A stretch of 20,000 bases of DNA from Reclinomonas americana ATCC 50394 (taxonomy: Eukaryota). The first letter of the stretch is position 1, and each line of letters starts with the position of its first letter. Shown here piece by piece: positions 1 to 20,000 of the stretch. Location: the NCBI GenBank assembly GCA_048213135.1, contig PS015181.1:58719-78718 (forward strand), in the 5' to 3' direction. Position numbers and translations under genes: made by a program. The notes below the pieces were generated by a model. The model was not told the DNA's origin. It made no database searches and was given only the letters and a program-made list of their open reading frames with translations.

Positions 1-2614
1 GCTGCCTCCATCGACGCCTCCATCCTGGGCGACTTTATCACTGTGCGCTCACTCAACAGCGTACTCCTGCAAAACACCGGCGGCAACCAGAACCTGAACA
101 GCGGCGGTTTCGTGTACATTGGCAGCACGTCGGCCACCAATGCCGGCACAGCGACGGTCACTGGCACCACGGCGGTGAGCGCGTCCGGCCAGACGGTGCA
201 GGTGACGCCCAGTACGCAGCTCGACGTGACGAGTTCGGCCACGGTCAACTTGCGTGGCGTGCAGCAGACCTCGTTGACGGCGCCGACTCTGTCGGCGACC
301 TCGACAGCCGCCGCCACGCAGACGGCGAACGAGCGCCTGACCATCAACGCCACGCAACCGCTTACGCTCACCGGCGGCACCGTGAGTGTCACCAGTGCGT
401 TCCCGTTCACCATCACGGCGTCGGCGACGGCCAACGTGCAGGCCTCGCGCGACATTCTGCTCTCGTCGGTCGCCGAAGTGCGCAGCATTGCGACCATTAC
501 GGCCAGCACCACTGGTGGTTCGGGCCAGGCGCTTCTCGCCGGCGGCAACGGACTGGTGGTCACCGCCGCCACCACGCTGCAGCTGGTGGGCGCACAGAGT
601 GCGGCGCTCACCGGTGAATCGGCGCTGGTGGTTTCTTCCACGGCCTCCACCGGAACCGTCACGCTGTCGGCGGCGGCCACCGGCACCGCCTCGTTCACGA
701 GCAAGTACATTACGCTCAGCGGCACATCCACGGCCACGGTGCTGTCCATGAGCGCCGGACGCAACCTCAGCACCAGCTCCACGTCGACGCTGGTGGAGTC
801 GAGCAATGTTGCTCTGATTCGCTCACAGACGGCGCGCTTGACCGTGTCGGCCGCCACCTCCAATGGCGATCTGTCGCTGACCGGCAACGGACACTTGCGC
901 TGCAGCTCCGCTCCTGTCACCAACTGCGCCTGTCCGACGCCGCTGGTGAGCGTGCAGGGTGCCACCGCCACCTTCCAGGCGTCGGGCATCGTCACGGCCA
1001 ATGCCACCACCTTGTTCCAGGTCGTGGCGCCCGCCGTCACCATCACCGCTCCGACCACCTTCCTGCTGTCGCCGGCCACCACTGCCGGCCTCTCGGCCAC
1101 CACCATCACCTCGACGGCGGCCAGCACGGCGTTGTTCGGCGCCACGAATACCGCCACTTTCAACGATGTTTCCTCTTCGGGGGCTGGCCTACTGTTCGCC
1201 ACGTCGCTCTGCACGGCCACCGTCAACGCCTTCAACATGACCAATCTCCTCAGTGTCGGCACCTCTGTGCTGCGCACCGTGCCCAGTGGATACACGGGCA
1301 CACCAGCGCGTCTGCTTGCCCTGCGTGGTGCCAATTCGAGCACCACTCCCGGCGGCGGCAGCATTGTTCTCGACGTCGGCAGCGGCACCACACAGAACGG
1401 CAACATGTTTGTCGGCACGCGCTCCAACTCGGTCATTCTCGGCAACACATCGTGCGTCTTCAGCACATCCTGCAATTGTTTTGGTCTGCTTGCTCCTCAC
1501 CTCACCGCCGTGTTTGCCTTTGTTTTTTGCAGTGCCACGGTCACCGCACGCGGCTCTTTTCGAGTGTACGGCGATCTGACGTTGTCGAGCACGTCGGCCA
1601 CCGATCTGTTCGTCACGCAGAACAATGCGGCGACCGCCACCCTCTACGACCTGACCATCGCAGGCCAACAAGTCACTGGCACCGGCAACGGCGGCGACGT
1701 GTACTTTGACGGCGGTGCCGGCAGCAGCAGTTGCGCCACCATGAATCCCCACCTCACATGCGTATCACTCACATTGCTCGTGCGCCAGGTCGCGGCACGG
1801 TATACGTCGGCACACTGACATCGCCCGTCACCATCTCCACCGGCACGAGAACGCTCTCGATCTACACTGCCAACTTGCAGCTGGGACAGGCCGATAGCGC
1901 GTTTACGCTCACGCGTGCGGCCGCCACCAACGCCACCCGCAGGGCATTGTTATTGTGGGCGGCACGAGCTCGGCGGTGACCATATCGTCCGGCACCGGCG
2001 GCACCGTGTTTGCGGCCAGCAGCGGCAATTTCGTGTTGCAAGGCGGCAACGGACCAGGCACGGGTGGCAGTGTCTATGTGCGCCACATCAACGTCACCAC
2101 CGGCACCTCCACCATCAGCCTCACAACCACCAGCAGCATTAGCATCGTCTCGGCCACCACCAACATCGGCAACAATCTGTCGATGCAAGTCGGCTTCCAG
2201 CCCGGTGCCGACGTCAGTGCACCACGCTTCCGCACGCTGATGGCTCGCTTCAGCCGCCTGTTCTTCCCCGACTCATTACCGCAGCAGGTGGCCCACAATA
2301 TGGGTGCCACGTTTTACCAGCGAGTCATTTCGGTGCAAGTTTCGTCTGGGGAATGACAGCGCACTTGTTTGTCTGCGTTGTTGTTGCTGCTACTCATCCT
2401 TCTGCTTGCTACATAGTGCACGCTGTACGGCGGCACCATTGAATCCAGCACCGAGTTGACAAACTTCTCGCCACCCTTCTCCGTTGGCGGCGGCTGGCTT
2501 GATGGCCTGCCGATTCTCACGGCCTCCGTCGACTCCACCTTCATCTCGGTGTGGTCCAAGGGGCTGGGAACGAACTTTATCGGCACCGCCTACATCACCA
2601 TCTTGTATATTTAG
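1..2614 (+). CDS. 3' part of a large Ser/Thr/Ala/Gly-rich beta-strand repeat (fibre-like) protein; 5' end lies outside the window
   Basis: Frame 1 is open from position 1. Inferred GT-AG introns at 1452-1532, 1730-1788 and 2339-2416 join ORFs 43..1818, 1731..1979 and 1955..2356 to a last exon 2417-2614 (CTLYGG...GTAYITILYI*). One unexplained frameshift remains near 1937. It shares the 'TIAGQ..GGDVYFDGG.G..G.VYVG' module with the downstream gene. Confidence 0.8.
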
Positions 2615-2719
2615 AGGAGAGAGGGGAGAAATGAGACTCGTCGCAATGCACGATGTCAACCAATCGACCAATCGTTCATCGTCCAACCGACGAGACCACC
2701 ACGAATCCAGACAGAAAAA

Positions 2720-5700
2720 ATGGCGTCGTCGCAGTCGTCGCCGTCGCTGTGTTGCGTCTTCTCTCTCCCACGCACACATACTCACACAGCTCTTTGTCAC
2801 ACGCAATCTCACTCTCCCTCGCGCACACGCGACTCTCACTCACATGTGTGTATTGTTCGCTGCGGCGCAGCTGCACAATCACCCGCAGTGATTGACTCGC
2901 GTCGAGTGTGGCGCCTCAAGCCACTGCCCGCGCCCTTCTCCTCACTAACAGGAGGACCAGGCGCCGCCCACGAGCATGACCACGACATCTTCATCTCTTC
3001 ATTATCATCTCATCCGCCGCATCCTCCACCACCACCACCTCCTCCATTGCCTCCCGCACAGGCCATGAGCATTGCCGCGCGCTTCTCACCCGCATGGCCT
3101 ACTGCTGTAGCCTTGACACCACCACAGCCAATGCTGCCGGGCGCAGTAAATTGGACACCGCTGATGCTGACGGGAGAGACTCGCTCGCCGGCGCCCGCCC
3201 TGCGTCGCACGTCGGTGGCGGGCGGTGCGCAGTCGACTGGAACGTCGCAGTCGGCGAGCGCCATGTCGCTGTCGAGTGAGTCATCCACGGGACGTCGGCT
3301 GCCGCGCAAGGTGGTTGTCGGCAACGAGGATGACTTTGAGGGCGAGGCGGAGGTGGCCGACGATGAACGCTCGTCTGTGTCCTCGTCAACAAGTGCGTCT
3401 GCCTCCTCGGTGCCGCCGATGCGTGGGGGCGGAATGCCGCGGCCCATGGATCCGGGTCAGCTGGACATGCCGCTCGATGCGCTGCCGCATGTCACCGACG
3501 TGGAGATGATGGATCCGCGCTTGACGCGCCTCCGGCAGCAGCAGTTGCTCGCAGCTCTGCTGGCCAACGCTCCTCCTGGCGCAGCGACAGAGGAGGCAGT
3601 CAAGCCGCGGCCTTCTTGGTGGCGCCGTCTGCTTCTGTCCATGGGCGTGCGCAGCGCGTACTGGCAGGATGTGATCTTGTCGACCACAGTCGTGGCGCAC
3701 GTGCTACTGATGTGGATCCTGTTTGGCATTGTCATGTTTCTCATCGCACGGTCGCCGACCTCGGTCACCACTCTCAATGTGGCCGGTTCGTGCTGATGCT
3801 TGCCTGTGTGTGTGCGCGCGTGCGCAGTACATGCAGCTCATTTTCTCGTTGCTTGGCAGGAGCGGCCACCACGACCACGCTAGTGGCCACCAACACTGTT
3901 AGTGCGCCGGCGGTGGTCGTGCAGTCGACTGTCGGCGACTCGCAATTAACATTGTCGTCGAGTCAAGCGGCGCGTCTGGTGTTTGCCGGCGGCGGAGCGA
4001 GTGCCAGCGCCGGGTTCACGCTCAAGTCCACCGATTCAGACACGTTGGAGTTCTCACGTGGCACAATATCTCTTCTCCAATTCACTCCGTCGGCTTCCGC
4101 ACGCAGCGCCCAAACAATGCCCTCGGCTCGTCGGCGAAGGTGCGAAACACGTTGTCATGTGCTTCTGGGCAACACTCACTCTGCTCACCCTTCCGCTTCT
4201 CTCGTCAGCCTTCTCCAACAATCGTCCACGGACACTACCGCATTCACCGCCAGGATAGGGACCAGCTCGCTGGAGATTGGCGACTCCACGCCGCAATCGT
4301 TGTTTAGTATCACGCGACTTGACGCTGTGGCCGGTAACGGCGGCACCACAATGCTTGCCGGGCAGAGTGCCAGGGTGTGTGTGTTTGTTTGAGTTCATGT
4401 CGAGCGGTGTCTCTTGGCACTCATGCACTCTTCTTCCGTTGTCGTTTATTATTGGGCAGGGGAGTGCCACGTACTCTGGCGGTGCGTTGCTGCTGGTCGC
4501 CGGCGATGGGTCACCCGGCGGCGACGCCACGATGCGAGCCGGCGATGGTCTGTAGCATTGTTCTGGTGTGAGATCTGGTTGCCATCTGTTGCTGATGCAC
4601 GGGCGCTCTCTCTTTCTTCCTGTTGGGGGTTGCAGGTGTGATTGCCGGCGGTCGCGGAGGCGGTAATGTGTATCTGCAGGCCGGTAACCCCACGTCCCCC
4701 AGCACTGCCGGTTTTGTGCAGGCTCATGGTCGCTTCTTCCAAGTGCGCCCGAGTGGCTCCAACAACGAAAGTCGCACGTCGGAACTGCAAATGGCAGTTC
4801 GCGCCGACGGCTCGGAGGCATTCTCTGTCAAGGCATCCGCGACGTCACTGGACATTAATAATCCGTCTGGTGGCCTCGTGTTCTCCTTTCCGGCCTCCAT
4901 TGACAATGGCTTCGAGTTCCTTTCGTCAGTCAGCGTGAACCGCCAGCTTCAGGTTTCCGCAGTCTCCGACAGTGCGGTCCTGTTGGCAAGCACCTCCTCG
5001 GCTGGTGGGTACCGAGTCAGTTAACTTTTTTGTCTCTCGCCGTCGTATTCCCTCTCTCACATGTCTATTTCTTCCTCACGCAGTGGCCGAGTCACGAATG
5101 GAGCTCCGTGCGGTCAGCGCGGTCGCCAAATTTGCATTGAGCAGCGCCACCGGTGTTGCGTCTCTTGTCAACACCAGCGGACCACTGACATTGTCCGCGG
5201 GCACCAGCAGCTCGGTGCAAGTGCTGTCACCGCTGCAAGTCAGCACCATCAATACGGCAACAGATGTGGACTTGATTCTGTCGCCGGCCACCAATCGCCT
5301 GAATGTGGGCTCCGACGGAGCGGACTTTTTGTTATCGCGGTCACCCGTCGTGGCCCTCAGCGACAATGGCAGTAGCCTCATTGTCCGTGGTCAAGATACG
5401 AACGCTGGCGCCGTGGGAGGCAGCCTGTTGCGTCTCGTCTCCTCTTTTCTCTGTCTTTTTTTTGAGTTCCACGTGCTCACATTGTAACGCAGGCGACTGG
5501 AGGGTGGCACTGGTCTGAGCACACGCGGAGCTGTGCGAATCGCCGTGGACACGCCTGGTCCGATCATTGTTGGCGACTCCAACGGCATGCTGCAAGTGCA
5601 AGCGCCCAGCACCTTTTCCAACACCGCCACGTTCATGCAAGTGGCCACGTTTGCGGCGGCTGTCGATACGGCCAGTGTCACCTCGGGTGGCGGCTCGGTG

Positions 5701-8700
5701 GCATTCGGCGCACTCTCACAGTCGGTGTTTACACTGACGCGGCCCAGTGCTACTGCGCCTGGAGCCAATGGAGTCGATTTCGCGTTGGTGGCAGGTCGCG
5801 GGAACGGTGGCGCGGCGGTCCACGGCCGCTTGTTGATTGGCACACGGAGCAGCACCAGTACGGTACGCAATGTTTTCCCGAATTCATGTCACACAGACAC
5901 GAGAAGCTAATATGCGTCGCTTTCGTCCCAGGTCATTGTGGACTCGGTCTCCACCACCACCATCGATTCGCAATCACAAGTCAACATTGCACCGACGGCT
6001 ACCTCCCTCAGTATCGGCAATGCTTCGCTCACCGCCACGATAGTCGGCAACGTGCGTTCTCACTGCGGCAGTTCGCACGCACACAAGTATTGCACACACT
6101 TACTGTGGCTGCGCAGTTGTTGACACCCAACGGCCTGACGACGGCGTTTGTGGATGCGCCTGCCGGCTCGACCAGTCTTCGGTTGCTGTCGAGCACCAGT
6201 GGGCGTTTTGAGTTTGGCGGCACCACCGGCACTGTCCTGCTCACGCGGCCGTCTGTCTCTGCCGCCGCCGCGACCGCGTTGACGATCGTTGGCCAGAGCA
6301 ACACGGGCGGGAGTGGCGGTGATTTGTTGCGTTCGCCCTCCCTTTGATCTGCATCCTCGTTTGCTCTCACCCTTTTGATGTAGGGTTCTCAACGGTGGCT
6401 CTGGGACCGGCACCTCCGGATCCGTGCATCTCGGCTCGAGCACCACTTCGCAAGTCGTTTTCGATGCGCTGGCAGTGGCGTCGACAGACCTGGTGGTGAA
6501 TGGAGAGGCTCGCTTCACCACACGGCTTCGCCTCTCGGGAACGGCGATGCAGTCTTCCGCTGCGGACTCGATTGAACTGGGTGATGTGACTACGGCACCC
6601 ACGCTGACAGTCACGCGACCGACGCCCACGGGCGTGAATCAGACCGGTGCCAGCATTCGCGTTGCTCCCTCGCCCGGCACAGGCGCCTTTGTGGCATCTG
6701 GCACTCTGTTCTTGGGCTCCTCCAACACGGGTACGGTGCGCATCGACGCAGCATCGGCGGCGATCGAAGCCACACAGGCGATTGCCATTGGTGTGCAAGG
6801 CACATCGGGTAACATCGCACTTGGACGCTCCGGCAGCACGGTCAATGTGGCTGCACAGGTGTGTGTGTGTGTGTCTCTCTCAATTCGAGTCCGTGGTGCT
6901 CCTCTCGTTTTTCGTTGCCTGATTGCTTTTCGACGCGCACTACAGATGGTCACCACTTCGTCGCTGACTGTGAACAGCGACGTTGTCGTGTCCACGGGCT
7001 CCGTGGCCACTCTGGGCGGCAGCCTTGCTTTGTCGCCTTCCAATAGCCGATTGGTGCTGGGCACGACCAGCAGCACTGTCGATTTTGTCGTGCAGAGACC
7101 GTCTGTGAGTGGGCGAGCGGCTGCGGATTTGTACATTTGGGGACAGGATCAGTCGAGCGTCGGCTTTGCGACGGGCTCTCTGTTGCGTTCATTTCTCCTT
7201 GTTCTCTCTTTCGCTTCGTGTTCGTACCAGCGTTGTTGATCTTGTGCATTGCCTGCAGCTATCTCGATGCTGGCAGTGGCGCCACCACCACGGGCGCCGT
7301 GCGCATCGGTTCCGCACGCGCGTCGGATGTCTATATTGGCAAGGCCACTAGCTCCACCGCCTGGCTTTTGTCGCCGACTGTGCGTGTGTCCAGCAATCTG
7401 CAGCTGGAAATAGGCGCCACACTGGTGACTGCCTCTGCCACTCTCCTCATTGGGGAGCCATCCAGCAACACCAGTCAAATTATCATTGCGCGCTCCGCAG
7501 CCACCGGCGTGGCGCCTGTCAACGGTGGCGACCTCCGATTGCAAGGCGGCAGCGGCGCTGGCGGTGGCGCCAACGGACGGCTGGTGCTTGGCGCAGCCAC
7601 TGTTGGCACTCCGGAGGTGCTTGCCACCGCGTCCGTGGTGCGACTCGCCGGCAGCACGCTGGTCGATGTGCAGACGTCGAGTGTGACGTTGGGAACGGCA
7701 TCGGCCACTGTCACAGTCGGCGGCCAACTCGTGGTCAACACTGGACTACAATTCAACGGAGCGGCGATACTGACCAACGGCGTGCAATCGCTGCCGGGAG
7801 TCGCCAACTCGCTCTCGTTGACGTCGTCGAGTGGCACGATTCTACTCGGAGACAACACCAATGCACTGACGCTGACCCGACCGCGCAATGTCGTGGGTGG
7901 AGGTCAGCCCCTGAACATTGTGGGTCAGCAGGGAGCCGGTGGTTCTGTCGGCGGCGATGTGTTGCGTTGGTCATCAATCACGTGCCATGAGCAAAAAGGC
8001 AGAGAGTTGTTGATGAGTGAGCGCGCGCGTGCAGATTAATCGACGGTGGCCCCGGTACACCGGTGGCCTCGGAAGGCGTTGTCCGCTTGGCAACTGCGAC
8101 CGGCAGTCAGGTTGGTTTTTTGTTGTCCTGCTCAAACGCTGTCGCGAGTTGCGGTGAATCACTGTTGCTTCGCGACCGTGTAGGTGGTCATTGGCCGTCA
8201 GGCGCTACCGAGTGGTGTCGTAATCGATGCGCCCTTGTTGTCGGTACTTGGCGACATTCGACTGGACGTCGGACGTGCTGTCCGTGTGCCTCTCTCAGGC
8301 AATCCGCTGTCGTCGCGCTTGAACTTTGGCGAGAAGGACACCTCTGCATTCATACTGCAGCGAGTATCGCCACCCAGTGGAACTAGCGTCGGGGCCTTTT
8401 GGGTACTCGGTGGAGCATCCACCGACAACGCCGCCGGTGGCGATGTGTACATTAGTGGCGGATCGAGTTTTGCTGGCAGCGGTGGTGCGGCGTACGTGCG
8501 GGGTGGTAATGATAGCTTCGGAATACCCACCGGGCCCGTGAACGTGGGCTTGGCGAGCACCTCGGCGCTGAATCTCCTTGGAGCGACAGCCAACCTCATT
8601 GGCGGCAGCACCGTCAGTATTCTCACCACCGCCGTTGGCGGAGCGGTGACCATTGGCAGTTCATCAAGTGCACTGACGATTGCCGGCACGGTGAGTGCGA

Positions 8701-11700
8701 GGGGCTGGACTTTGTCTATGTTTCCTGCTCACCGTTGCCATTTCGATTGTCGCAGACAACGGTGACAGCTACCTCGTCGTTCGTCGGCAGTGTGAGCATG
8801 GTGAATCTGCAAGTCACTGGATCGCTGTCGACATCAGCCCCTCTTAGCGCCGGCGCTGGTGTCGAGGCTCCGTTCATTGCCAATTCTTTCGGCACGCTCA
8901 CCGTGAAGAGTCTCAACAACCTCGTGGAGTTTGGCGTTGCTGGAAGCGATTTTGTTCTCTCGCGTCCTTTGGGCACGGCTGCCACCAACATGGTAATCGC
9001 CGGCCAGCAGTCGAGCACGGGCGTCGGCGGCAATGTGTTGCGTCTACACTGGCACGGACCGCACATGCCTACCACAGCATGATTTAACCGCGCACACTGC
9101 AGCGTTCTGGACGGCGGCGTAGGCATCGGATCCGATGGCACAGTGCGCATCGGGACTCAGCGAGGCGCAGTGGTCATAGGGAACGCCGGCTCAACGGTGA
9201 CCTTCAGCGCACCGACAGTGTCGACCACCGGCGCCGTGAATGTCGGCACGCTGTCGGTAAGTCGACGCCCATCATCGACATTTTTCCCATGCGCTGACCA
9301 TTGCATGCGTAGACCCAATCGACAGCTGTGCTCGGCGCTGCTCTCACACTCAGCACTGGCGAGTTGTTGGCGCCGAGCACGAATGGCCTGCTTCTCGGAC
9401 CAAGCACGCCGAGCTCTTCGTTTTTCATCAAGCGTCCGTCGGCGACTGGCGTCGGTGGCGATCTCAGTCTGGAGCCAGGAAGCGGCACGACCGGTCCCGG
9501 CACTCTGATCCTCGGTGCAGCCAGTCGTGCGAGCGCGAAAGTGAGAACCCTTTACTCATTGTGTGCGTGTGTGCAAAATGAGGGACTCACTTACTGCTTG
9601 CAGGTGTTGGCACAAGCGCAAGCGGTGGAGTTGGCTGCCGTGTCGTCGCTGCTTTTGCATTCGTCGGGCTCGCACATCAGCATCGTGGCCGACGGTGTGA
9701 ACCCTGCGTTTGAGGTGCAGCTGGCGGCTAGCGGGCGGCCAACTCGCGTAAAGGGCAATGTTAGTTGTCCGACAACGTCGTTTAGCTCGTTCGTTCATCG
9801 CCGTCGCGATTTGCTGACTTGATTTGCCTTGTGCTGCGGCAGTTGCTGGTGGATGAAGCGGCGGCATTCACCGCCGCGGTGACCGCCCCGTCTCTTACCT
9901 GCCCCACCCTTGCGTCGCCTGCCGGTGGAGCTCTGTCGCTTGCTCCCGCCAATGGCCAGGTGCGACGTACATTCATCGACTTTGTGTCGCCGGTAACTCT
10001 GTGTGCTAACTGAATCTTGGTAGCTGTCGTTGACGGCTGCTGCCGGCACTGCATTCACGCTGTCGCGTCCAGTGCAAGCTGCAAGTGCCGGCGACGTGAC
10101 GTACTTGACCGGCCAGGCGTCCACAGCACTCAACGGCGACGGTGGCGCTCTGTTGCGTCTGCGTGTGACATCTTTAGCGCACGTATGCGTCACTGATTCG
10201 CTCTTGTGCAATGAAGGTATCTGGATGGCGGCGCGTCAAGCAGTGGGGCGGCTGGCAGCTTGCTGATTGGAACCGTGAGCACCAATGATGTGCGTTACTC
10301 AGCAGGGTGTGTTATTGTCGGCACTTGGTTGCGTGGCATTGACCGTCTTCTCGCTGTGTCTCCAGGTGACCATTCACAAGAGTGGAGCCGGCTTTGGTAC
10401 CACCACGCTGGCCGCTGCGACAACCGTTGTCTCCGGTGGCTTGGTGACCAATGGAAGTTTGACGGTAATCTGCGAGTGCTTTTCACGCCGTAGTCACAGC
10501 TATTGTTGACTTGCACTTGTCGCTTCAGGTGGCGGGGTCGCTTGTGCTCACCGGACCGTTGCCGCTGGTGTCGAGCCTCGTTGCTCCTGCTCAGACGCTT
10601 ATCGTCGACACGAACCCCAGCGGCCAGGCGCTGCTTACCATTCGCACTCCTGATCGCGCCGGAAAGTTTTGTCTTCTCTCGCGATAGCATAATGACCGAG
10701 GCAACTCACGTGTCGTCTCTCCCTGCAGCACGGCCACAAGCTTGAAGATTGCACCAGGGCAGGGCAACTCTGCTTCCTTGCAGCTCGGCGAGACTGGCCG
10801 TATCACTGGAACGGTGTGTCTATCTGTGCAACCACCCATTCTGTCGCTTTGGCTGCCTGGCTGACCACGCACACGTACAGGTCACTGTCTTGGGTAGTGC
10901 GTTGGAGCTTTCCGGCGACACCGTCACTGTCAAGGGCACCACCATCTCCGTTGGCTCATCGGACCCGGCTCTCGCGTCACTGTCGATCTCTCGCGCAGGC
11001 ATTCTCACCTCCGTGCTCGGAGCTGTTGCGTCACCTGCTCCACCGTCATGTGCTCCTGCTTTTATCGCTTACCGTCAATGTTGGCCAGCTCAATGTCGCC
11101 GAAGACGTGACGATAGTCGGCAAGGCTACCGTGTCGCAGATTGTGTCTGCGGCCGCGACATCGCTTTCACTCGCCTCCAACAACGGCATTGTGTACGTGG
11201 ACAGTCTTGGTGTGAATCTGACGCTGACACGACCGCAAGTCAACGGATCGCCTTTTGATTTCACGGTGGCCGGACAAGATTCCACCGGATCTGTCACCGG
11301 CGGTCGTGTGTTTGTCGTTGGAGGCATGGGTACTTCGTCTGGCGGTGCCGTGTTCCTCGGAACGGCACCCACGTCGGCCACAACCGTCGGCCACACAGGT
11401 GGGACTCTGGCCTTGGTCGCCAGCACCATGACACTGTCGGCCACGTCTGTCACACTCCAGTCGCCCACGACTCTCGGCAGCTCCGACAACATCCTTCGTA
11501 TCGGTGCGCCGAATGCCATGCTCACTGTCCGCCATGCGTCTGCATTGGCGTCGACCGTACCGCCGCCAACACTTCGACTGGAGAGCGCAATACACGGCGC
11601 TGGCACGGGTACCGTGCTGTATGGCGACATTGAGGTGTCCACGGGAGCTGTCATTGGCCAGCGCGGTCGGGTGAGCGCTTGCTTTCTTGCTTGTCGCAGT

Positions 11701-14700
11701 GCGTCTGAGACCTCTTTCGTGTGTCTAACACGTGCCTCTTCTTGGCGCAGTTCTCTATTCAAGTTGGCGACACGACCGTGTCGTCGAATGGCACCGTGTC
11801 AATATCCGCCACATCGGCGTTGACTGTAAGTGGCACTTCTACTGTCAGCATCACGTCGACCAATGCTGCCTTGACTCTCGATGCTGTTTCGAGCGTTGCG
11901 TCACACTCTTGTCGACAATCTGCTCTGCCATTTACCCACCATGTGTTTTGCCGTTTGTGTAGACGGTGACCATGGGCGCGACGGCCCAGTCCGTTGTCAT
12001 TGGCAATTCATCGGCGAGTCTTACGGTGCAGAGCCCGGTGAGTTTCAACAAATCTCCACATGCATGCGCACGCTTGTCGACGCAGCTGACGCTGGCGACG
12101 TGGTACAGATTGCGGCGCAACGAGCGGTTGTCATGTCGGGCACGTTGGAGGTGAATGGCGAAGCACACTTGGTTGGCGATGTGCGCACAACGAACATTCG
12201 CTCCGAGAGCGCCACGAGTGCCACAGGTGGTATCATTAGCCTGCAGTCGCAGTCGGACCTGCAGCTTCTTGTTGGTGAGGAGTCTGGAAGTGACTTTCTC
12301 TCTCGCTTACCACCCACCATCTAACGATTGGCTGGCGCGCAGGTCTCGATGCGGGTGCCGCTTCGTCCATTGTGCAACTCGGAGACAGTACAGCCAAGGC
12401 TTTCATATTGAAGCGCGTCTCCACCGGATCGGCGACGGCCGGTTCTGCGACCCAATTGCTCGGCCAAGATTCCACTGGCACCGGCGGCAGCGTGTTGCGT
12501 CCCCTTGTCCAGTGCTGTGAATCAGGCGCTGGGTAGTTTCCTCACACTTTGTGATGCTGCGCCACGCAGGAGCATTGATGCGGGCGCTGCGCCTACTCCA
12601 GGCGACATTCTCATGGGCACTGTGGCCGCCACGACCATCACCATCGGCAATTCTGCACATGCCGCACAGCAGACGACCATTGTTGGTGCGTCCCTTTGTT
12701 GACTGTGATTGATGTGAATGCGCGCACATGTTCACGCGGTTGACGCTGCTGCTGCAGATGCCAGTACGTTGGTCCGCGTGGGCACTGTGGCCACCACCGC
12801 CACCGTGCGGCTCGGCGGGCTGGCCACACAGCTGTTGGGCACGGTATGTCGCGGCCGCCGCCGTTTGTGCACTTTTTGTTGATAACCTTCCACTGAGCTT
12901 GCGTATTGCCATTGCAGAATACCGTGGCCGTGGCGGCACCCGCCATCACTGTTGGGCAGGCGGCGTCCACCATCGCCCGCGCCACCTCGCTTACTCTCGA
13001 CGCTGCGACCACGCTGACAATTGGCGACTCCACGACGCCAACGTCTACCATTAGCGTGTACGGCGCCACGGCCACCGTTAGTTGCGTGGTGGAGCTCATT
13101 CACGATGCTTACCCACAATGCTGACCGTGTGTGTGAATGGGGTGTGCAGCGGCCACTACTTCACTGGCCGCCGTAACCGACGCAGTGACCTTTGGCACCA
13201 CTGCCGGCAGCAAGTTGCGCTTTGCGGCCGGAGCACCGTTTGTTGTCGACTTGGACGCTGTGGGAGGTCTGTTGGTGTTCTGATCTGCCTCCCATTTTTT
13301 CTTGTTGCTGACTGGAGCGGCGCAGGAACGCTTTCGTTCGGCGACGACACGCTGTCCACCACTGGCGCCGTCTTGAGTTCAAGCGTCAGCGCCAGTGGCA
13401 CCGTGTCCGGCAATGCTCTCGTGCTGACCGCCGCCGCCATCAATGCGGCCGGTGCGATCACTGGAACCAGCTTGAGTGTCAGCGGCGTCGTGAACGGCGC
13501 GAGCGTCAGCACCAGTGGCGCAGTGTCTGCGGATTCGTTGACTCTCACCGCTGCTGCGATCAACTCTGGTGGTGCCATCACGGGCACCAGTTTGAGCGTC
13601 AGTGGGGTCGTGAATGGAGCCAGCGTCAGCACCAGCGGCACGGTGTCCGCGAACGCGCTCACATTGACGGCGGCCGCCATCAACGCCGCCGGTGCAATCA
13701 CCGGCACCAGCATGAGCGTCAGCGGCGTCGTGAATGGCGCGAGCGTCAGCACGAGTGGTGCGGTGTCAGCCGATTCACTGACATTGACAGCGGCAGCGAT
13801 CAACGCCGCCGGTGCCATTACGGGTACCAGCCTGAGTGTTAGCGGCACCATCAACTCGTCAGGCATCAGCACGTCGGGTACTGTATCAGCCAGTGCACTC
13901 ACGCTGACTGCCGCGTCCATTGACGCCGCCGGTGCCATCCTCGGTACGAGTATGAGTGTGAGTGGAGNNNNNNNNNNNNNNNNNNNNNNNNNNNNNNNNN
14001 NNNNNNNNNNNNNNNNNNNNNNNNNNNNNNNNNNNNNNNNNNNNNNNNNNNNNNNNNNNNNNNNNNNNNNNNNNNNNNNNNNNNNNNNNNNNNNNNNNNN
14101 NNNNNNNNNNNNNNNNNNNNNNNNNNNNNNNNNNNNNNNNNNNNNNNNNNNNNNNNNNNNNNNNNNNNNNNNNNNNNNNNNNNNNNNNNNNNNNNNNNNN
14201 NNNNNNNNNNNNNNNNNNNNNNNNNNNNNNNNNNNNNNNNNNNNNNNNNNNNNNNNNNNNNNNNNNNNNNNNNNNNNNNNNNNNNNNNNNNNNNNNNNNN
14301 NNNNNNNNNNNNNNNNNNNNNNNNNNNNNNNNNNNNNNNNNNNNNNNNNNNNNNNNNNNNNNNNNNNNNNNNNNNNNNNNNNNNNNNNNNNNNNNNNNNN
14401 NNNNNNNNNNNNNNNNNNNNNNNNNNNNNNNNNNNNNNNNNNNNNNNNNNNNGAGCGTGAGTGGCGCAGTGAACGGCAGCAGTGTGAGCACGAGTGGCGC
14501 CGTGTCCGGTGCATCGCTGACGTTGACGGCAGCTGCAATCAACGCAGCTGGTGCGATCACGGGTGTCAGCCTGAGTGTGAGTGGCGCTGTTAACGGCCTG
14601 AGTGTGAGCACGAGTGGCGTGATGTCCGGCGCTTCGTTGGCGTTGACGGCAGCTGCAATCAACGCAGCTGGTACGATCACGGGTGTCAGCCTGAGCGTGA

Positions 14701-15553
14701 GTGGTGCGGTGAACGGCGCAACGATCACCAGCGGTGGTGTGGTCGTCGCGACGGGTGCAATCACGGGTGCCAGTGTCAGTGTCAGTGGCGCAGTGAACGG
14801 CAGCAGTGTGAGCACGAGTGGTGCGGTGAACGGCGCAACGATCACCAGCGGTGGTGTGGTCGTCGCGACGGGTGCGATCACGGGTGCCAGTGTCAGTGTC
14901 AGCGGCGCAGTGTCTGGTGCATCGCTGACGTTGACGGCGGCGTCCGTCGATGCGGCTGGTGCGATTACGGGCGACTCGCTTACGTTGACTGCGGCATCGA
15001 TTGATTCGGCCGGCGCCATTGCTGGTGACTCGCTGACATTGACGGCGGCGTCGATCGATTCGGCTGGCGCGATCACTGGATCTTCAGTGACAACGTCTGG
15101 CGATGTTGAAGTCGCTGGCACACTCAAGAGCACAGCTGGCCTCTCGCTGACACCTGTGATTATCATCGACGACATGATGGCATCGCAGACAGTCACCGAT
15201 CCCTCCATCGTCATTCTCAAAGTTGCGCGAAAGAGATTTGTGTTGCTTGACTTGCATGCCTTAAAATTACTCACCTGAATTGTCAATGTGCAGTCGAATG
15301 GAGGAGCTGTACGTAGTTTTTTTTTTACCGTCGTTGCCTTCAACCTCGTCGCTTGTGCCTCATTTTTTCTTGTTTGCAGGCACCTGTGGCAGTCGCCGTT
15401 ACCATCACGACGGCAGTCGACGGCCTCACCGTGTGGGTCAAGAATGTGTCGACCAACAACATGGTGGTCACTGTCGGAACCGCCACCACAACAATAATGC
15501 CATACACGACCGGCTTCTTTGTCTATGACGGCGCGTCGACAAGTTGGTACTAG
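2720..15553 (+). CDS. Giant (~3,400 aa) single-pass, probably type II, membrane protein with a long fibre-like beta-repeat ectodomain; 38 exons
   Basis: ATG at 2720 in an AAAAAATGG context. Inferred introns, all GT-AG and phase-compatible: 2751-2870, 3786-3859, 4140-4208, 4375-4459, 4548-4635, 5005-5083, 5427-5492, 5863-5931, 6052-6116, 6326-6383, 6859-6945, 7182-7258, 7961-8034, 8111-8183, 8691-8755, 9037-9102, 9257-9312, 9541-9603, 9760-9842, 9960-10023, 10152-10216, 10290-10365, 10465-10528, 10666-10728, 10814-10880, 11025-11088, 11671-11750, 11895-11962, 12038-12108, 12275-12342, 12494-12569, 12686-12757, 12844-12917, 13081-13149, 13267-13325, 15222-15293, 15309-15379. Hydrophobic helix VILSTTVVAHVLLMWILFGIVMFLIA at about 3670-3750. 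Stop TAG at 15551-15553. Continuity across the N gap is assumed because the same repeat flanks both sides. Confidence 0.82.
13380..15080 (+). repeat. Coding tandem repeat: 120-nt / 40-aa unit (SLSVSGVVNGASVSTSGAVSADSLTLTAAAINAAGAITGT) with shorter derivative units
   Basis: The 120-nt period is visible at 13431, 13551, 13671, 13791 and 13911. It continues after the gap (14521, 14641), followed by variant units and 16-aa units (DSLTLTAASIDSAGAI). Confidence 0.95.
13968..14451. other. Assembly gap inside the coding tandem repeat
   Basis: Run of 484 N. Confidence 1.
15294..15308 (+). other. 15-nt microexon (SNGGA) of the giant gene
   Basis: TGCAG|TCG AAT GGA GGA GCT|GTACGT. It is phase 0 on both sides and flanked by introns of 72 and 71 nt, typical for this gene. 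Confidence 0.7.
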
Positions 15554-15751
15554 AAAGAGAGAGAGAGAGAGACAAAAGGAAAAAGTTCAAAAGTGTACAC
15601 TGAGCAGAGTGCTGTTGTACTGCACAAACAGCAACAGCCACAAGCCCCACTATGCGCGGAATCGCCAACACGCCTCCCCCTCTCCCTCCCTCCTCTCTCT
15701 CTCTCTCTCTCACACACACATACACCGACTCCATCACTGACGCGGTTCGTC

Positions 15752-17677
<1,926 letters not shown>

Positions 17678-18102: not shown

Positions 18103-18122
18103 NNNNNNNNNNNNNNNNNNNN
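18103..18122. other. Assembly gap (20 N, true size possibly unknown)
   Basis: Run of N between purine-rich low-complexity flanks. Confidence 1.
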
Positions 18123-19297: not shown

Positions 19298-19591
19298 GCA
19301 CGAGGAGGAAGAGAGGGGATGAACTTGCGTGGACGCTAGCAACCGAGTTCTTTCTGCTACAAGAGACGTGTGGCGCAAGCAAGAATGACCAGGAACGACC
19401 GCGACAGGTGAAGCGAAGGAGGGATATCCTTCTGTCACAAAAGATGTAGCACGAGGAGGAAGAGAGGGGATGAACTTGCGTGGACGCTAGCAACCCAGTT
19501 CTTTCTGCTACAAGATACGTGTGGCGCAAGCAAGAATGACCAGGAACGACCGCGACAGGTGAAGCGAAGGAGGGATATCCTTCTGTCACAA
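19298..19591. repeat. Two near-identical tandem copies of a ~143-nt unit (period 151), with more degenerate relatives at about 19040-19250
   Basis: 19298-19440 and 19449-19591 both read gcacgaggaggaagagaggggatgaacttgcgtggacgctagc...atccttctgtcacaa, with only a few mismatches. Confidence 0.95.
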
Positions 19592-19966
19592 GAGAAGTTG
19601 TAAATGCAAGAATACACAGAAAAGCCATTAAAGACAGACATCATCCCACAAGGGGGGCGGCAAAAGAAAGAATAGACCAGGACCGAACGCGTGAGGTGCC
19701 AGACACCCTTACGCTTGAAAGGCCGAGTGATACATGACAGAAATGCCATTGCACACCCCATCCCCTTTGTCTCCCCCCTTTCCCCTTGCTGCAGATTCTA
19801 CACGGAGAGGTGCAGCAAAGAGCTGTGGCACATGCAAGAACATCTCCCACTGACACTTGCCAGAGAGCGACCAAAGGCCGATTCGACCAGCGCTTCCCGT
19901 AAAACAAGAGAGAACAGAGAAGGTGTGGCACAACTCGCATCGTGATGCTCGAGAGAAGCAACAAGA

Positions 19967-19967
<1 letters not shown>

Positions 19968-20000
<33 letters not shown>
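19968..20000. repeat. (CT)n microsatellite
   Basis: Pure CT run reaching the window end. Confidence 0.97.

Follow-up and report, generated by a model that had tools for sequence, protein, structure and literature searches.

Trimeric β-helix rods are classic phage and bacterial hardware; the main eukaryotic examples are the short stalk of MYRF and, following a preprint of 2025, giant glycofibril proteins of alveolates. Here we analyze a 20,000-nucleotide stretch of the genome of Reclinomonas americana ATCC 50394 (contig PS015181.1, positions 58,719 to 78,718 of the forward strand; referred to below as the window, with positions counted from its first letter), in which an intron-rich gene is modeled to encode a giant protein with one membrane anchor and a long, repetitive ectodomain. 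On balance we lean towards the view that this protein is a type II-anchored, probably homotrimeric β-helical surface fiber from a new family, and that it resembles phage spikes in shape and fold class, a resemblance and not a demonstrated homology. With the spikes and tail fibers of phages, pyocins and contractile injection systems (the T4 gp5 C-terminal helix, P2, R2 pyocin and HylP1) it shares a predicted intertwined homotrimer of strand/Gly-turn units and a Cys-free rod with a distal tip. It differs from them in being encoded by a nuclear gene with 35 introns, in carrying an N-terminal membrane helix where they have a baseplate, and in being more than ten times longer; moreover, there is no sequence similarity to these spikes and the fold matches reach Z-scores of just 2.0–3.1.

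The closest biological precedent, a giant eukaryotic triple β-helix fibril protein, is provided by the TLP-12 glycofibril, an extracellular structure in which, according to the preprint that describes it, three chains with short Gly/Ser-rich repeats weave a triangular triple β-helix with 216 residues of each chain per 14 nm of rise (bioRxiv 10.1101/2025.09.30.679562). The candidate proteins named in that source are giant alveolate proteins, for example a 19,853-aa Amoebophrya protein, and combine GSxxSx7 repeats with a C-terminal intramolecular chaperone auto-cleavage (ICA) domain (bioRxiv 10.1101/2025.09.30.679562). By this description the R. americana protein stands apart: TLP-12 has strict GSxxSx7 dodecapeptides, whereas here Gly recurs with a period of 7, lag 12 gives z = 1.5 and the shaft has a period of 40. 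TLP-12 ends in an ICA, whereas here there is no ICA match and an N-terminal membrane anchor is present. In particular, a Pfam scan of the last two exons, which are intron-split and were scanned separately, gave no match to the Peptidase_S74/ICA domain at E ≤ 1. A second eukaryotic protein for comparison is MYRF, a membrane-bound protein that, as its published accounts have it, trimerizes via a phage-type triple β-helix (PMC3742443, PMC8326128), so that folds of this type do occur among eukaryotic membrane proteins. In those accounts the MYRF helix is short, lies on the cytosolic or endoplasmic reticulum side and is coupled to ICA self-cleavage, whereas here a rod of ~2,900 aa is proposed and neither Peptidase_S74/ICA nor a DNA-binding domain was found.

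The bacterial proteins EtpA, HMW1 and pertactin are, like the protein described here, giant, Cys-poor, G/S/T/A/V-rich repetitive surface rods, and our shaft model aligns with them; they are, however, single-chain solenoids with a two-partner secretion (TPS) domain or a β-barrel translocator, neither of which was detected here, and exon 12 of our gene is trimeric in prediction. Teneurins are described as eukaryotic type II proteins with a large bacterial-type ectodomain and in that respect set a precedent for domestication (PMC3278476, PMC6425310). The teneurin ectodomain, as presented in these sources, is Cys-rich (EGF) and shows demonstrable homology to bacterial YD-repeat proteins, whereas no homology was found here. 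Finally, the Chlamydomonas mastigoneme protein Mst1 is reported to form a protist surface-hair glycoprotein polymer (PMC10602792, PMC11015965) and may be a functional analogue; mastigonemes are hydroxyproline-rich by these descriptions, whereas our protein contains 3% Pro, has a different predicted fold and carries its own anchor. Membership in any of these known families is not supported, and what we propose is that the protein works like a triple β-helix fiber.

A modeled 36-exon gene and its paralogous introns

The window has a GC content of ~60% across 1–14 kb, with T exceeding A on the + strand, and the + strand stop-to-stop open reading frames (ORFs) form a staircase of S/T/A/G/V-rich segments with shifting frames. 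A codon log-odds table was trained on the clearest segments of the window and a Viterbi path was computed over codons and GT-AG introns, with refined donor and acceptor matrices. The best path runs from the ATG at 2720 to the gap, which it meets at 13967 after 34 introns; from 14454 it continues across one more intron (15222–15379) to the stop codon at 15551–15553 (Table 1). The modeled protein comprises 3,242 aa plus whatever the gap at 13968–14452 conceals. The introns are 40–165 nt long (median 68), have a GC fraction of 0.528 as against 0.622 in the exons and are T-rich on the + strand only. Reading through them meets an in-frame stop in 20 of 34 cases, and just 9 of 34 are a multiple of three in length. 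Many carry a CTRAC-like element ahead of the AG, and for intron 2 a second possible donor at 4140 (vs 4044) would leave the reading frame unchanged. A giant gene with identical start and stop coordinates had been proposed in an earlier, sequence-only reading of the window; that reading counted 37 introns, and while the intron-rich architecture is borne out by our independent model, the number is 35 here, to which the gap could add more.

Independent support for the splicing comes from the introns themselves. Seven of them (starting at 5427, 6326, 7182, 7961, 9037, 10152 and 12494) interrupt the same motif at the same site and in the same phase, between GG[DNS] and LxLxGG, and all seven have the donor GTTGCGT, whereas other modules of this gene have the motif GG[DNS]-LxLxGGxG within continuous coding sequence. 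Donors of the form GTTGCG(T/C) are also found at the introns starting at 11025, 11895, 13081 and 15222 and at ~1728 in an upstream gene, and beyond the donor the seven paralogous introns have diverged. By their sequences, these seven introns appear as a clear case of multiplication by duplication of exon-intron units.

Further support is comparative. The 283-aa ORF P0002, a relative from another assembly, aligns with exon 11 over its residues 1–67 (43% identity, E 1e-11) and, within the same ORF, with exon 12 over its residues 79–230 (34% identity, E 1e-11); since P0002 is uninterrupted across the two exons, the intron at 7182–7258 is validated. The start of a further relative, P0001, coincides with the start of exon 12, and P0001, P0002, P0004 and P0006 break into hydrophobic read-through tails at the aligned ends of exons 10 and 14. 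When both strands were searched with a profile derived from A1, the 20-row alignment that also underlies the exon 12 structure model, matches were found on the + strand of the window only, including three on pieces outside the alignment at 12354–12497 (E 1.8e-6), 11966–12148 (E 3.8e-5) and 5944–6081 (E 2.2e-4).

As judged from these sequence features, the locus is an intron-rich single nuclear eukaryotic gene, and its transcription as one mRNA from 2720 to 15553 would rest on frame continuity and comparative support. We consider it very unlikely that the locus is instead not one functional gene and represents a set of shorter genes, an array of decaying pseudogenes or a partial repeat-assembly artefact. 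The 36 exons form an unbroken, frame-compatible chain 12.8 kb long that has a single start region, a single anchor and a single terminal stop; the introns lie 9 GC points lower and are T-rich on the + strand only, profile matches are likewise confined to that strand and one junction is validated by a relative. Three observations would suit such an interpretation, namely that the 485-N gap falls within tandem repeats, that the training segments of the codon model came from this same locus and that long antisense ORFs are present. The latter cover coding exons at 3–1496 (−, 498 codons) and 13886–15586 (−, 566 codons); because profile A1 gives zero minus-strand matches, they seem to arise incidentally from the G/A/S/T/V codon composition, and an ORF-based annotator could miscall them.

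Membrane anchor, repeats and predicted fold

Exon 1 encodes a tail with a poly-Pro run and acidic and Ser-rich stretches and gave no match in a Pfam scan. This tail is followed by the single strong hydropathy peak of the protein: 19-residue windows with a Kyte-Doolittle mean above 1.9 start at residues 317–328, the one other being a single window at residue 3180 (1.95). Within residues 318–343 the mean rises to 2.75, a K/R cluster lies just upstream and one Arg follows downstream. By the positive-inside rule this segment would be a type II signal anchor (N-in, C-out), with the N-terminal tail in the cytoplasm. The ectodomain contains 1 Cys in 2,858 aa and 8.1% D+E+K+R, and is made up largely of Ser (14.1%), Ala (13.8%), Gly (13.4%), Thr (12.9%), Val (10.6%) and Leu (9.3%), with Pro at 3.0% and Ser+Thr together at 27%. 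The low-complexity tail, the one transmembrane helix and the ~3,000 charge-poor residues nearly devoid of Cys that had been noted from the sequence alone are thus all recovered, as is the succession of a repeat body, a regular shaft and a terminal domain, put at ~90 aa in that earlier reading and at ~100 aa here.

The ectodomain body is built from modules of 100–130 aa, which are grouped into super-repeats of ~235–260 aa, and its motifs exceed what is seen in 300 shuffles of the sequence. The strict form GG[DN][LV]xLxGGxG occurs 3 times (0 in shuffles) and a relaxed form 10 times (shuffle mean 0.12, maximum 2), while [LVIF]x[LVIF]xR[PSVA] is found 16 times (mean 2.41, maximum 6) and [LV]xVxGx[IV] 8 times (mean 1.24, maximum 5). 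Autocorrelation of the body gives z = 5.2 for Gly at lag 7 and z = 2.9 for hydrophobic residues at lag 2, a combination that in sequence terms is the signature of short β-strands with Gly turns. The shaft that follows consists of 120-nt tandem repeats, located by Tandem Repeats Finder (TRF) at 13379–13939 and 14453–15073, with autocorrelation z-scores of 8.8–10, and its halves on either side of the gap are 64% identical. Finally, the C-terminal ~100 residues are non-repetitive and β-rich in composition, and are split by the last intron, which has the donor GTTGCGCG and a T-rich acceptor.

These periodicities bear on the idea of an ectodomain that, like a mucin, would be a stalk with heavy O-glycosylation and little folded structure. 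The Ser+Thr content, the low complexity, the lack of a known domain and the moderate confidence of both structure models described below could be taken that way, but Pro amounts to just 3.0%, the Gly and hydrophobic lags point to regular strands, the modules are retained in relatives at 31–46% identity, the trimer prediction reaches the confidence values given below and the shaft is predicted to be all-β. We regard a mucin-like stalk as a highly improbable description of this protein.

Exon 12, which spans one full super-repeat, was modeled with AlphaFold2 (AF2) on alignment A1. The monomer has a predicted local distance difference test score (pLDDT) of 70.1, a predicted template modeling score (pTM) of 0.51 and neither helix nor strand by DSSP. 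Such an extended conformation would be expected if sheets formed only between partner chains. In contrast, exon 12 in three copies gave interaction prediction scores from aligned errors (ipSAE) of 0.73, 0.77 and 0.75 (0.75 overall) in the complex test, as against 0.00 for all three controls, with 1,466–1,487 interface contacts, at least 94% contact agreement between runs and a pLDDT of 74–79. Of proteins with solved structures, 21 of 30 that are pairs of one chain attain the mark of this test, as against none of 23 that are single chains. In the predicted trimer, the best-defined contacts join residue i to residues i ± 5–8 of another chain, which together with the 7-residue Gly period fits a triangular, intertwined β-helix.

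A fold search with the exon 12 model against 48,161 representative PDB chains, performed with VIA and independent of Foldseek, returned 10 chains at Z ≥ 2. Eight of the ten come from phage, pyocin or PVC spike and tail-fiber entries, among them T4 gp5 helix constructs, the P2 spike, the KP1 and Mu baseplates, the R2 pyocin spike and HylP1. We take these matched entries to be triple β-helices, and the matches are consistent with a predicted fiber fold without proving it.

The shaft exon was modeled separately. Alone, on a 2-row alignment, it was predicted by AF2 as an all-β, right-handed single-chain solenoid with a pLDDT of 59.2, and this model aligns with EtpA (Z 19.9, root mean square deviation 2.9 over 249 residues), the HMW1 secretion domain (Z 17.3), tapirin (Z 17.0), a chain of the Mtd-pertactin complex (Z 16.4) and many phage tailspikes. 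The exon 12 trimer and the shaft model both indicate a β-helix and disagree on whether one chain or three would form it.

Several of these results weigh against a trimeric fiber and have to be set beside the evidence for it. The structural support consists entirely of predictions, made for a low-complexity sequence. The complex test was calibrated on two copies and not three, only 1 of 7 eukaryotic test proteins without an older solved relative reached its mark, and complexes already solved and known to the predictor may account for a pass. The exon 12 fold matches are weak, at Z 2.0–3.1, and Foldseek returned nothing at E ≤ 0.001 in PDB or BFVD for either the exon 12 or the shaft model. The solenoid predicted for the shaft suggests that at least part of the protein may not be intertwined, and a C-terminal ICA chaperone domain was not detected with Pfam. 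As to the gene itself, the 485-N gap cuts the shaft repeats and the start codon is ambiguous: ATG 3066 may be the true start instead of 2720, because 2750–2900 resembles the CA/CT-rich intergenic or non-coding DNA seen 3' of the stop.

The shaft model also speaks for an ectodomain that has the same gene and anchor but forms a monomeric, single-chain β-solenoid rod like the TPS and autotransporter adhesins of bacteria. Its alignments with EtpA, HMW1, tapirin, the pertactin chain and tailspikes agree with such a rod, and giant bacterial adhesins have a similar composition. Yet the model has low confidence and a shallow alignment, Foldseek gave nothing at the threshold stated, the exon 12 monomer shows no solenoid and nevertheless passes the three-copy test, and no TPS, autotransporter or adhesin family was found with Pfam (12 pieces) or NCBIfam (13 pieces). 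We consider this single-chain rod unlikely, and the probably homotrimeric fiber remains the reading that we favor. The trimeric β-helical filament envisaged from the sequence alone is supported by prediction, through exon 12 (ipSAE 0.75 vs 0.00); for the shaft, AF2 predicts a single-chain solenoid at low confidence.

Table 1 Positions of the modeled gene, its parts and other features in the window
Feature	Position	Strand	Description	Basis
Whole modeled gene	2720–15553	+	36 exons, 35 GT-AG introns, one 485-N gap; at least 3,242 codons	Viterbi splice model
Exon 1	2720–3785	+	Low-complexity Pro/Ser/acidic tail and putative membrane anchor	ORF 2615–3796, sequence
Hydrophobic segment	3671–3748	+	Residues 318–343	Hydropathy scan
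Ectodomain body, exons 2–34	3860–13270	+	~15 modules FxLxRP...GG[DNS]-LxLxGGxG...GxVxIG	Motif and periodicity analysis, profile matches
Intron 11	7182–7258	+	77 nt; among the seven paralogous introns	Splice model, P0002 collinearity
Exon 12	7260–7958	+	233 aa, one full super-repeat	Used for database searches, AF2 model and homotrimer test
Shaft	13318–15086	+	40-aa (120-nt) repeats, broken by the gap at 13968–14452; at least ~10 copies	TRF, autocorrelation, AF2
C-terminal end	15087–15553	+	~100 aa (45+57 codons: 15087–15221, 15380–15550) and stop	Sequence, splice model
Upstream tandem gene, 3' part	1–2614	+	Same composition and modules; probable last exon 2417–2614	ORFs, A1 profile
N gaps	13968–14452 (485 N), 16686–16793, 18103–18122			

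Relatives, origin and neighboring DNA

An exhaustive phmmer scan of 1.84 billion representative proteins with exon 12 (E ≤ 1e-3) found 9 relatives, 3 of them at E ≤ 1e-10, with lengths of 85–514 aa and 31–46% identity. All nine resemble exon fragments from unannotated eukaryotic assemblies and have intron read-through tails. A search for homologous proteins with the A1 profile returned P0009 alone, for which the recorded source is Logan. More than one species probably carries the family, because several relatives show a more AT-biased residue make-up. Judged by these sequence matches the family is real but nearly absent from public protein space.

Searches for known domains were negative throughout. 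In 12 pieces of the gene nothing reached the Pfam cut-off, the top row being Shr-like_HID on the low-complexity shaft (20.8 bits, cut-off 22.3), and 13 pieces gave no significant match in NCBIfam; both sets took in part of the small exons. PDB sequences yielded nothing at E < 0.4 for the profile and the single pieces (profile search E 0.59), the C-terminal end had no Pfam, PDB or PHROG match, and Rfam showed no match. No homologous protein was found with window 1–1299. The opinion formed from the sequence alone that no named eukaryotic family can be assigned therefore agrees with Pfam, NCBIfam and the PDB sequences. In the ESM Atlas, exon 12 reached 0.91, at low recognition, with eukaryotic clusters that are unnamed and labelled Chlorophyta, and the shaft reached 0.76–0.80, mostly to Uroviricota hypotheticals, a level that one third of shuffled proteins equal; neither result was used as evidence.

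Independently of the fold, the gene could have originated as a captured phage, giant-virus or bacterial fiber gene that gained its introns later. The likeness to such genes lies in fold class only, with two weak leads: the top PHROG row, a tail-fiber PHROG matched to a low-complexity region of the shaft exon at E 0.0036 (16 bits), and the Atlas neighbors mentioned above. Nothing better than E 0.0035 was obtained with PHROGs in 11 pieces, tblastn against 50,697 phage records gave no match, exon 12 had no relative in viral, prokaryotic and JGI metagenome contigs and its relative P0007 had none in metagenome contigs; together with the Pfam, NCBIfam and PDB results, these searches lend no support to the viral or bacterial derivation that had been suggested for this gene. 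Moreover, all nine relatives look like eukaryotic exon fragments, and both the 35 introns and the presence of a tandem paralogue suggest that the gene has resided in the genome for a long time. Capture from a virus or bacterium consequently appears quite improbable to us.

The tandem paralogue lies immediately upstream. It has at least three short GT-AG introns and one exon that alone exceeds 430 codons (1–~1450), and encodes FxLxR and GGxVxFxGGxG modules. The A1 profile matches it at 1522–1734 (E 3.6e-4) and 1800–1931 (E 5e-5), and its probable last exon is only weakly similar to the C-terminal exon of the main gene (E 0.001). On sequence grounds the locus looks like a tandem gene pair or family in which the upstream gene would be a distant paralogue. 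The TAG of the upstream gene (2612–2614) lies just 105 nt before the ATG at 2720 and shares its reading frame with the ORF that follows, open from position 2615 onward. The intergenic spacer may be extremely short, or translation may start later, at 3066; a read-through or fused product is also conceivable.

On the other side of the gene, a convergent neighbor at 15950–16480 (−; ORF 15947–16861) encodes a coiled-coil with a partial match to Pfam SF-assemblin/beta-giardin (E 1.3e-5; 25.2 bits, cut-off 30.6) that is broken by the gap at 16686–16793. It hints that the organism builds flagellar-root or striated fibers. On either side of the genes are long microsatellites of the (CA)n and (CT)n/(GA)n types, at 15555–15575, 15690–15725, 16529–16682, 16878–16931 and 19969–20000. 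From 17 to 20 kb the + strand is strongly purine-rich, with an AT skew of up to 0.48 and no convincing ORF, and a 151-bp tandem repeat (2.0 copies, 97% identity) is located at 19298–19595.

Proposed assembly and implications

A fiber of the kind that we favor could be assembled as follows. The disordered N-terminal tail would stay in the cytoplasm, with the single signal-anchor helix holding the protein in the membrane. Three chains would be anchored co-translationally through their N-terminal helices, each projecting ~2,900 residues outward, and the three identical ectodomains would wind together such that a strand-plus-Gly-turn unit of ~7 residues forms one side of a triangular prism. The resulting triple-stranded β-helix would be a stiff rod, continued by the shaft of 40-aa repeats and ending in a small C-terminal knob. 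If the TLP-12 rise applies, the rod would measure 0.15–0.2 µm (~0.19 µm for ~2,900 residues), and its Ser/Thr-rich faces would probably be O-glycosylated, as in TLP-12. Phage fibers bear receptor-binding or folding-nucleus domains at their distal tip. The C-terminal knob, which would occupy the distal tip here, seems the likeliest part for binding a ligand or nucleating the trimer. The product would be a cell-surface or flagellar fibril, that is, a hair, an element of the glycocalyx or coat, or an adhesin.

A limited literature search turned up no description of this protein family. Tentatively, the gene might be the first of a eukaryotic family, so far undescribed, whose triple β-helix fibers are anchored in the membrane, lack an ICA chaperone, grew by tandem duplication of exon-intron units, are convergent with phage spikes and not derived from them, and form surface or flagellar hairs or glycocalyx fibrils of protists; this broader proposal is one about which we have real doubts. 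In any case, the locus illustrates cleanly how paralogous introns of a single gene can keep the same position, phase and donor sequence. It also supplies a concrete gene to compare with protist surface hairs and coats that are known from micrographs only. If the proposal is true, the protein would represent a second eukaryotic triple β-helix fiber family, unrelated in sequence to the first, which has an anchor of its own, lacks an ICA domain and bears a clear record of having grown as exon-intron units were duplicated, and such fibers would have evolved or been retained more widely in protists than thought.

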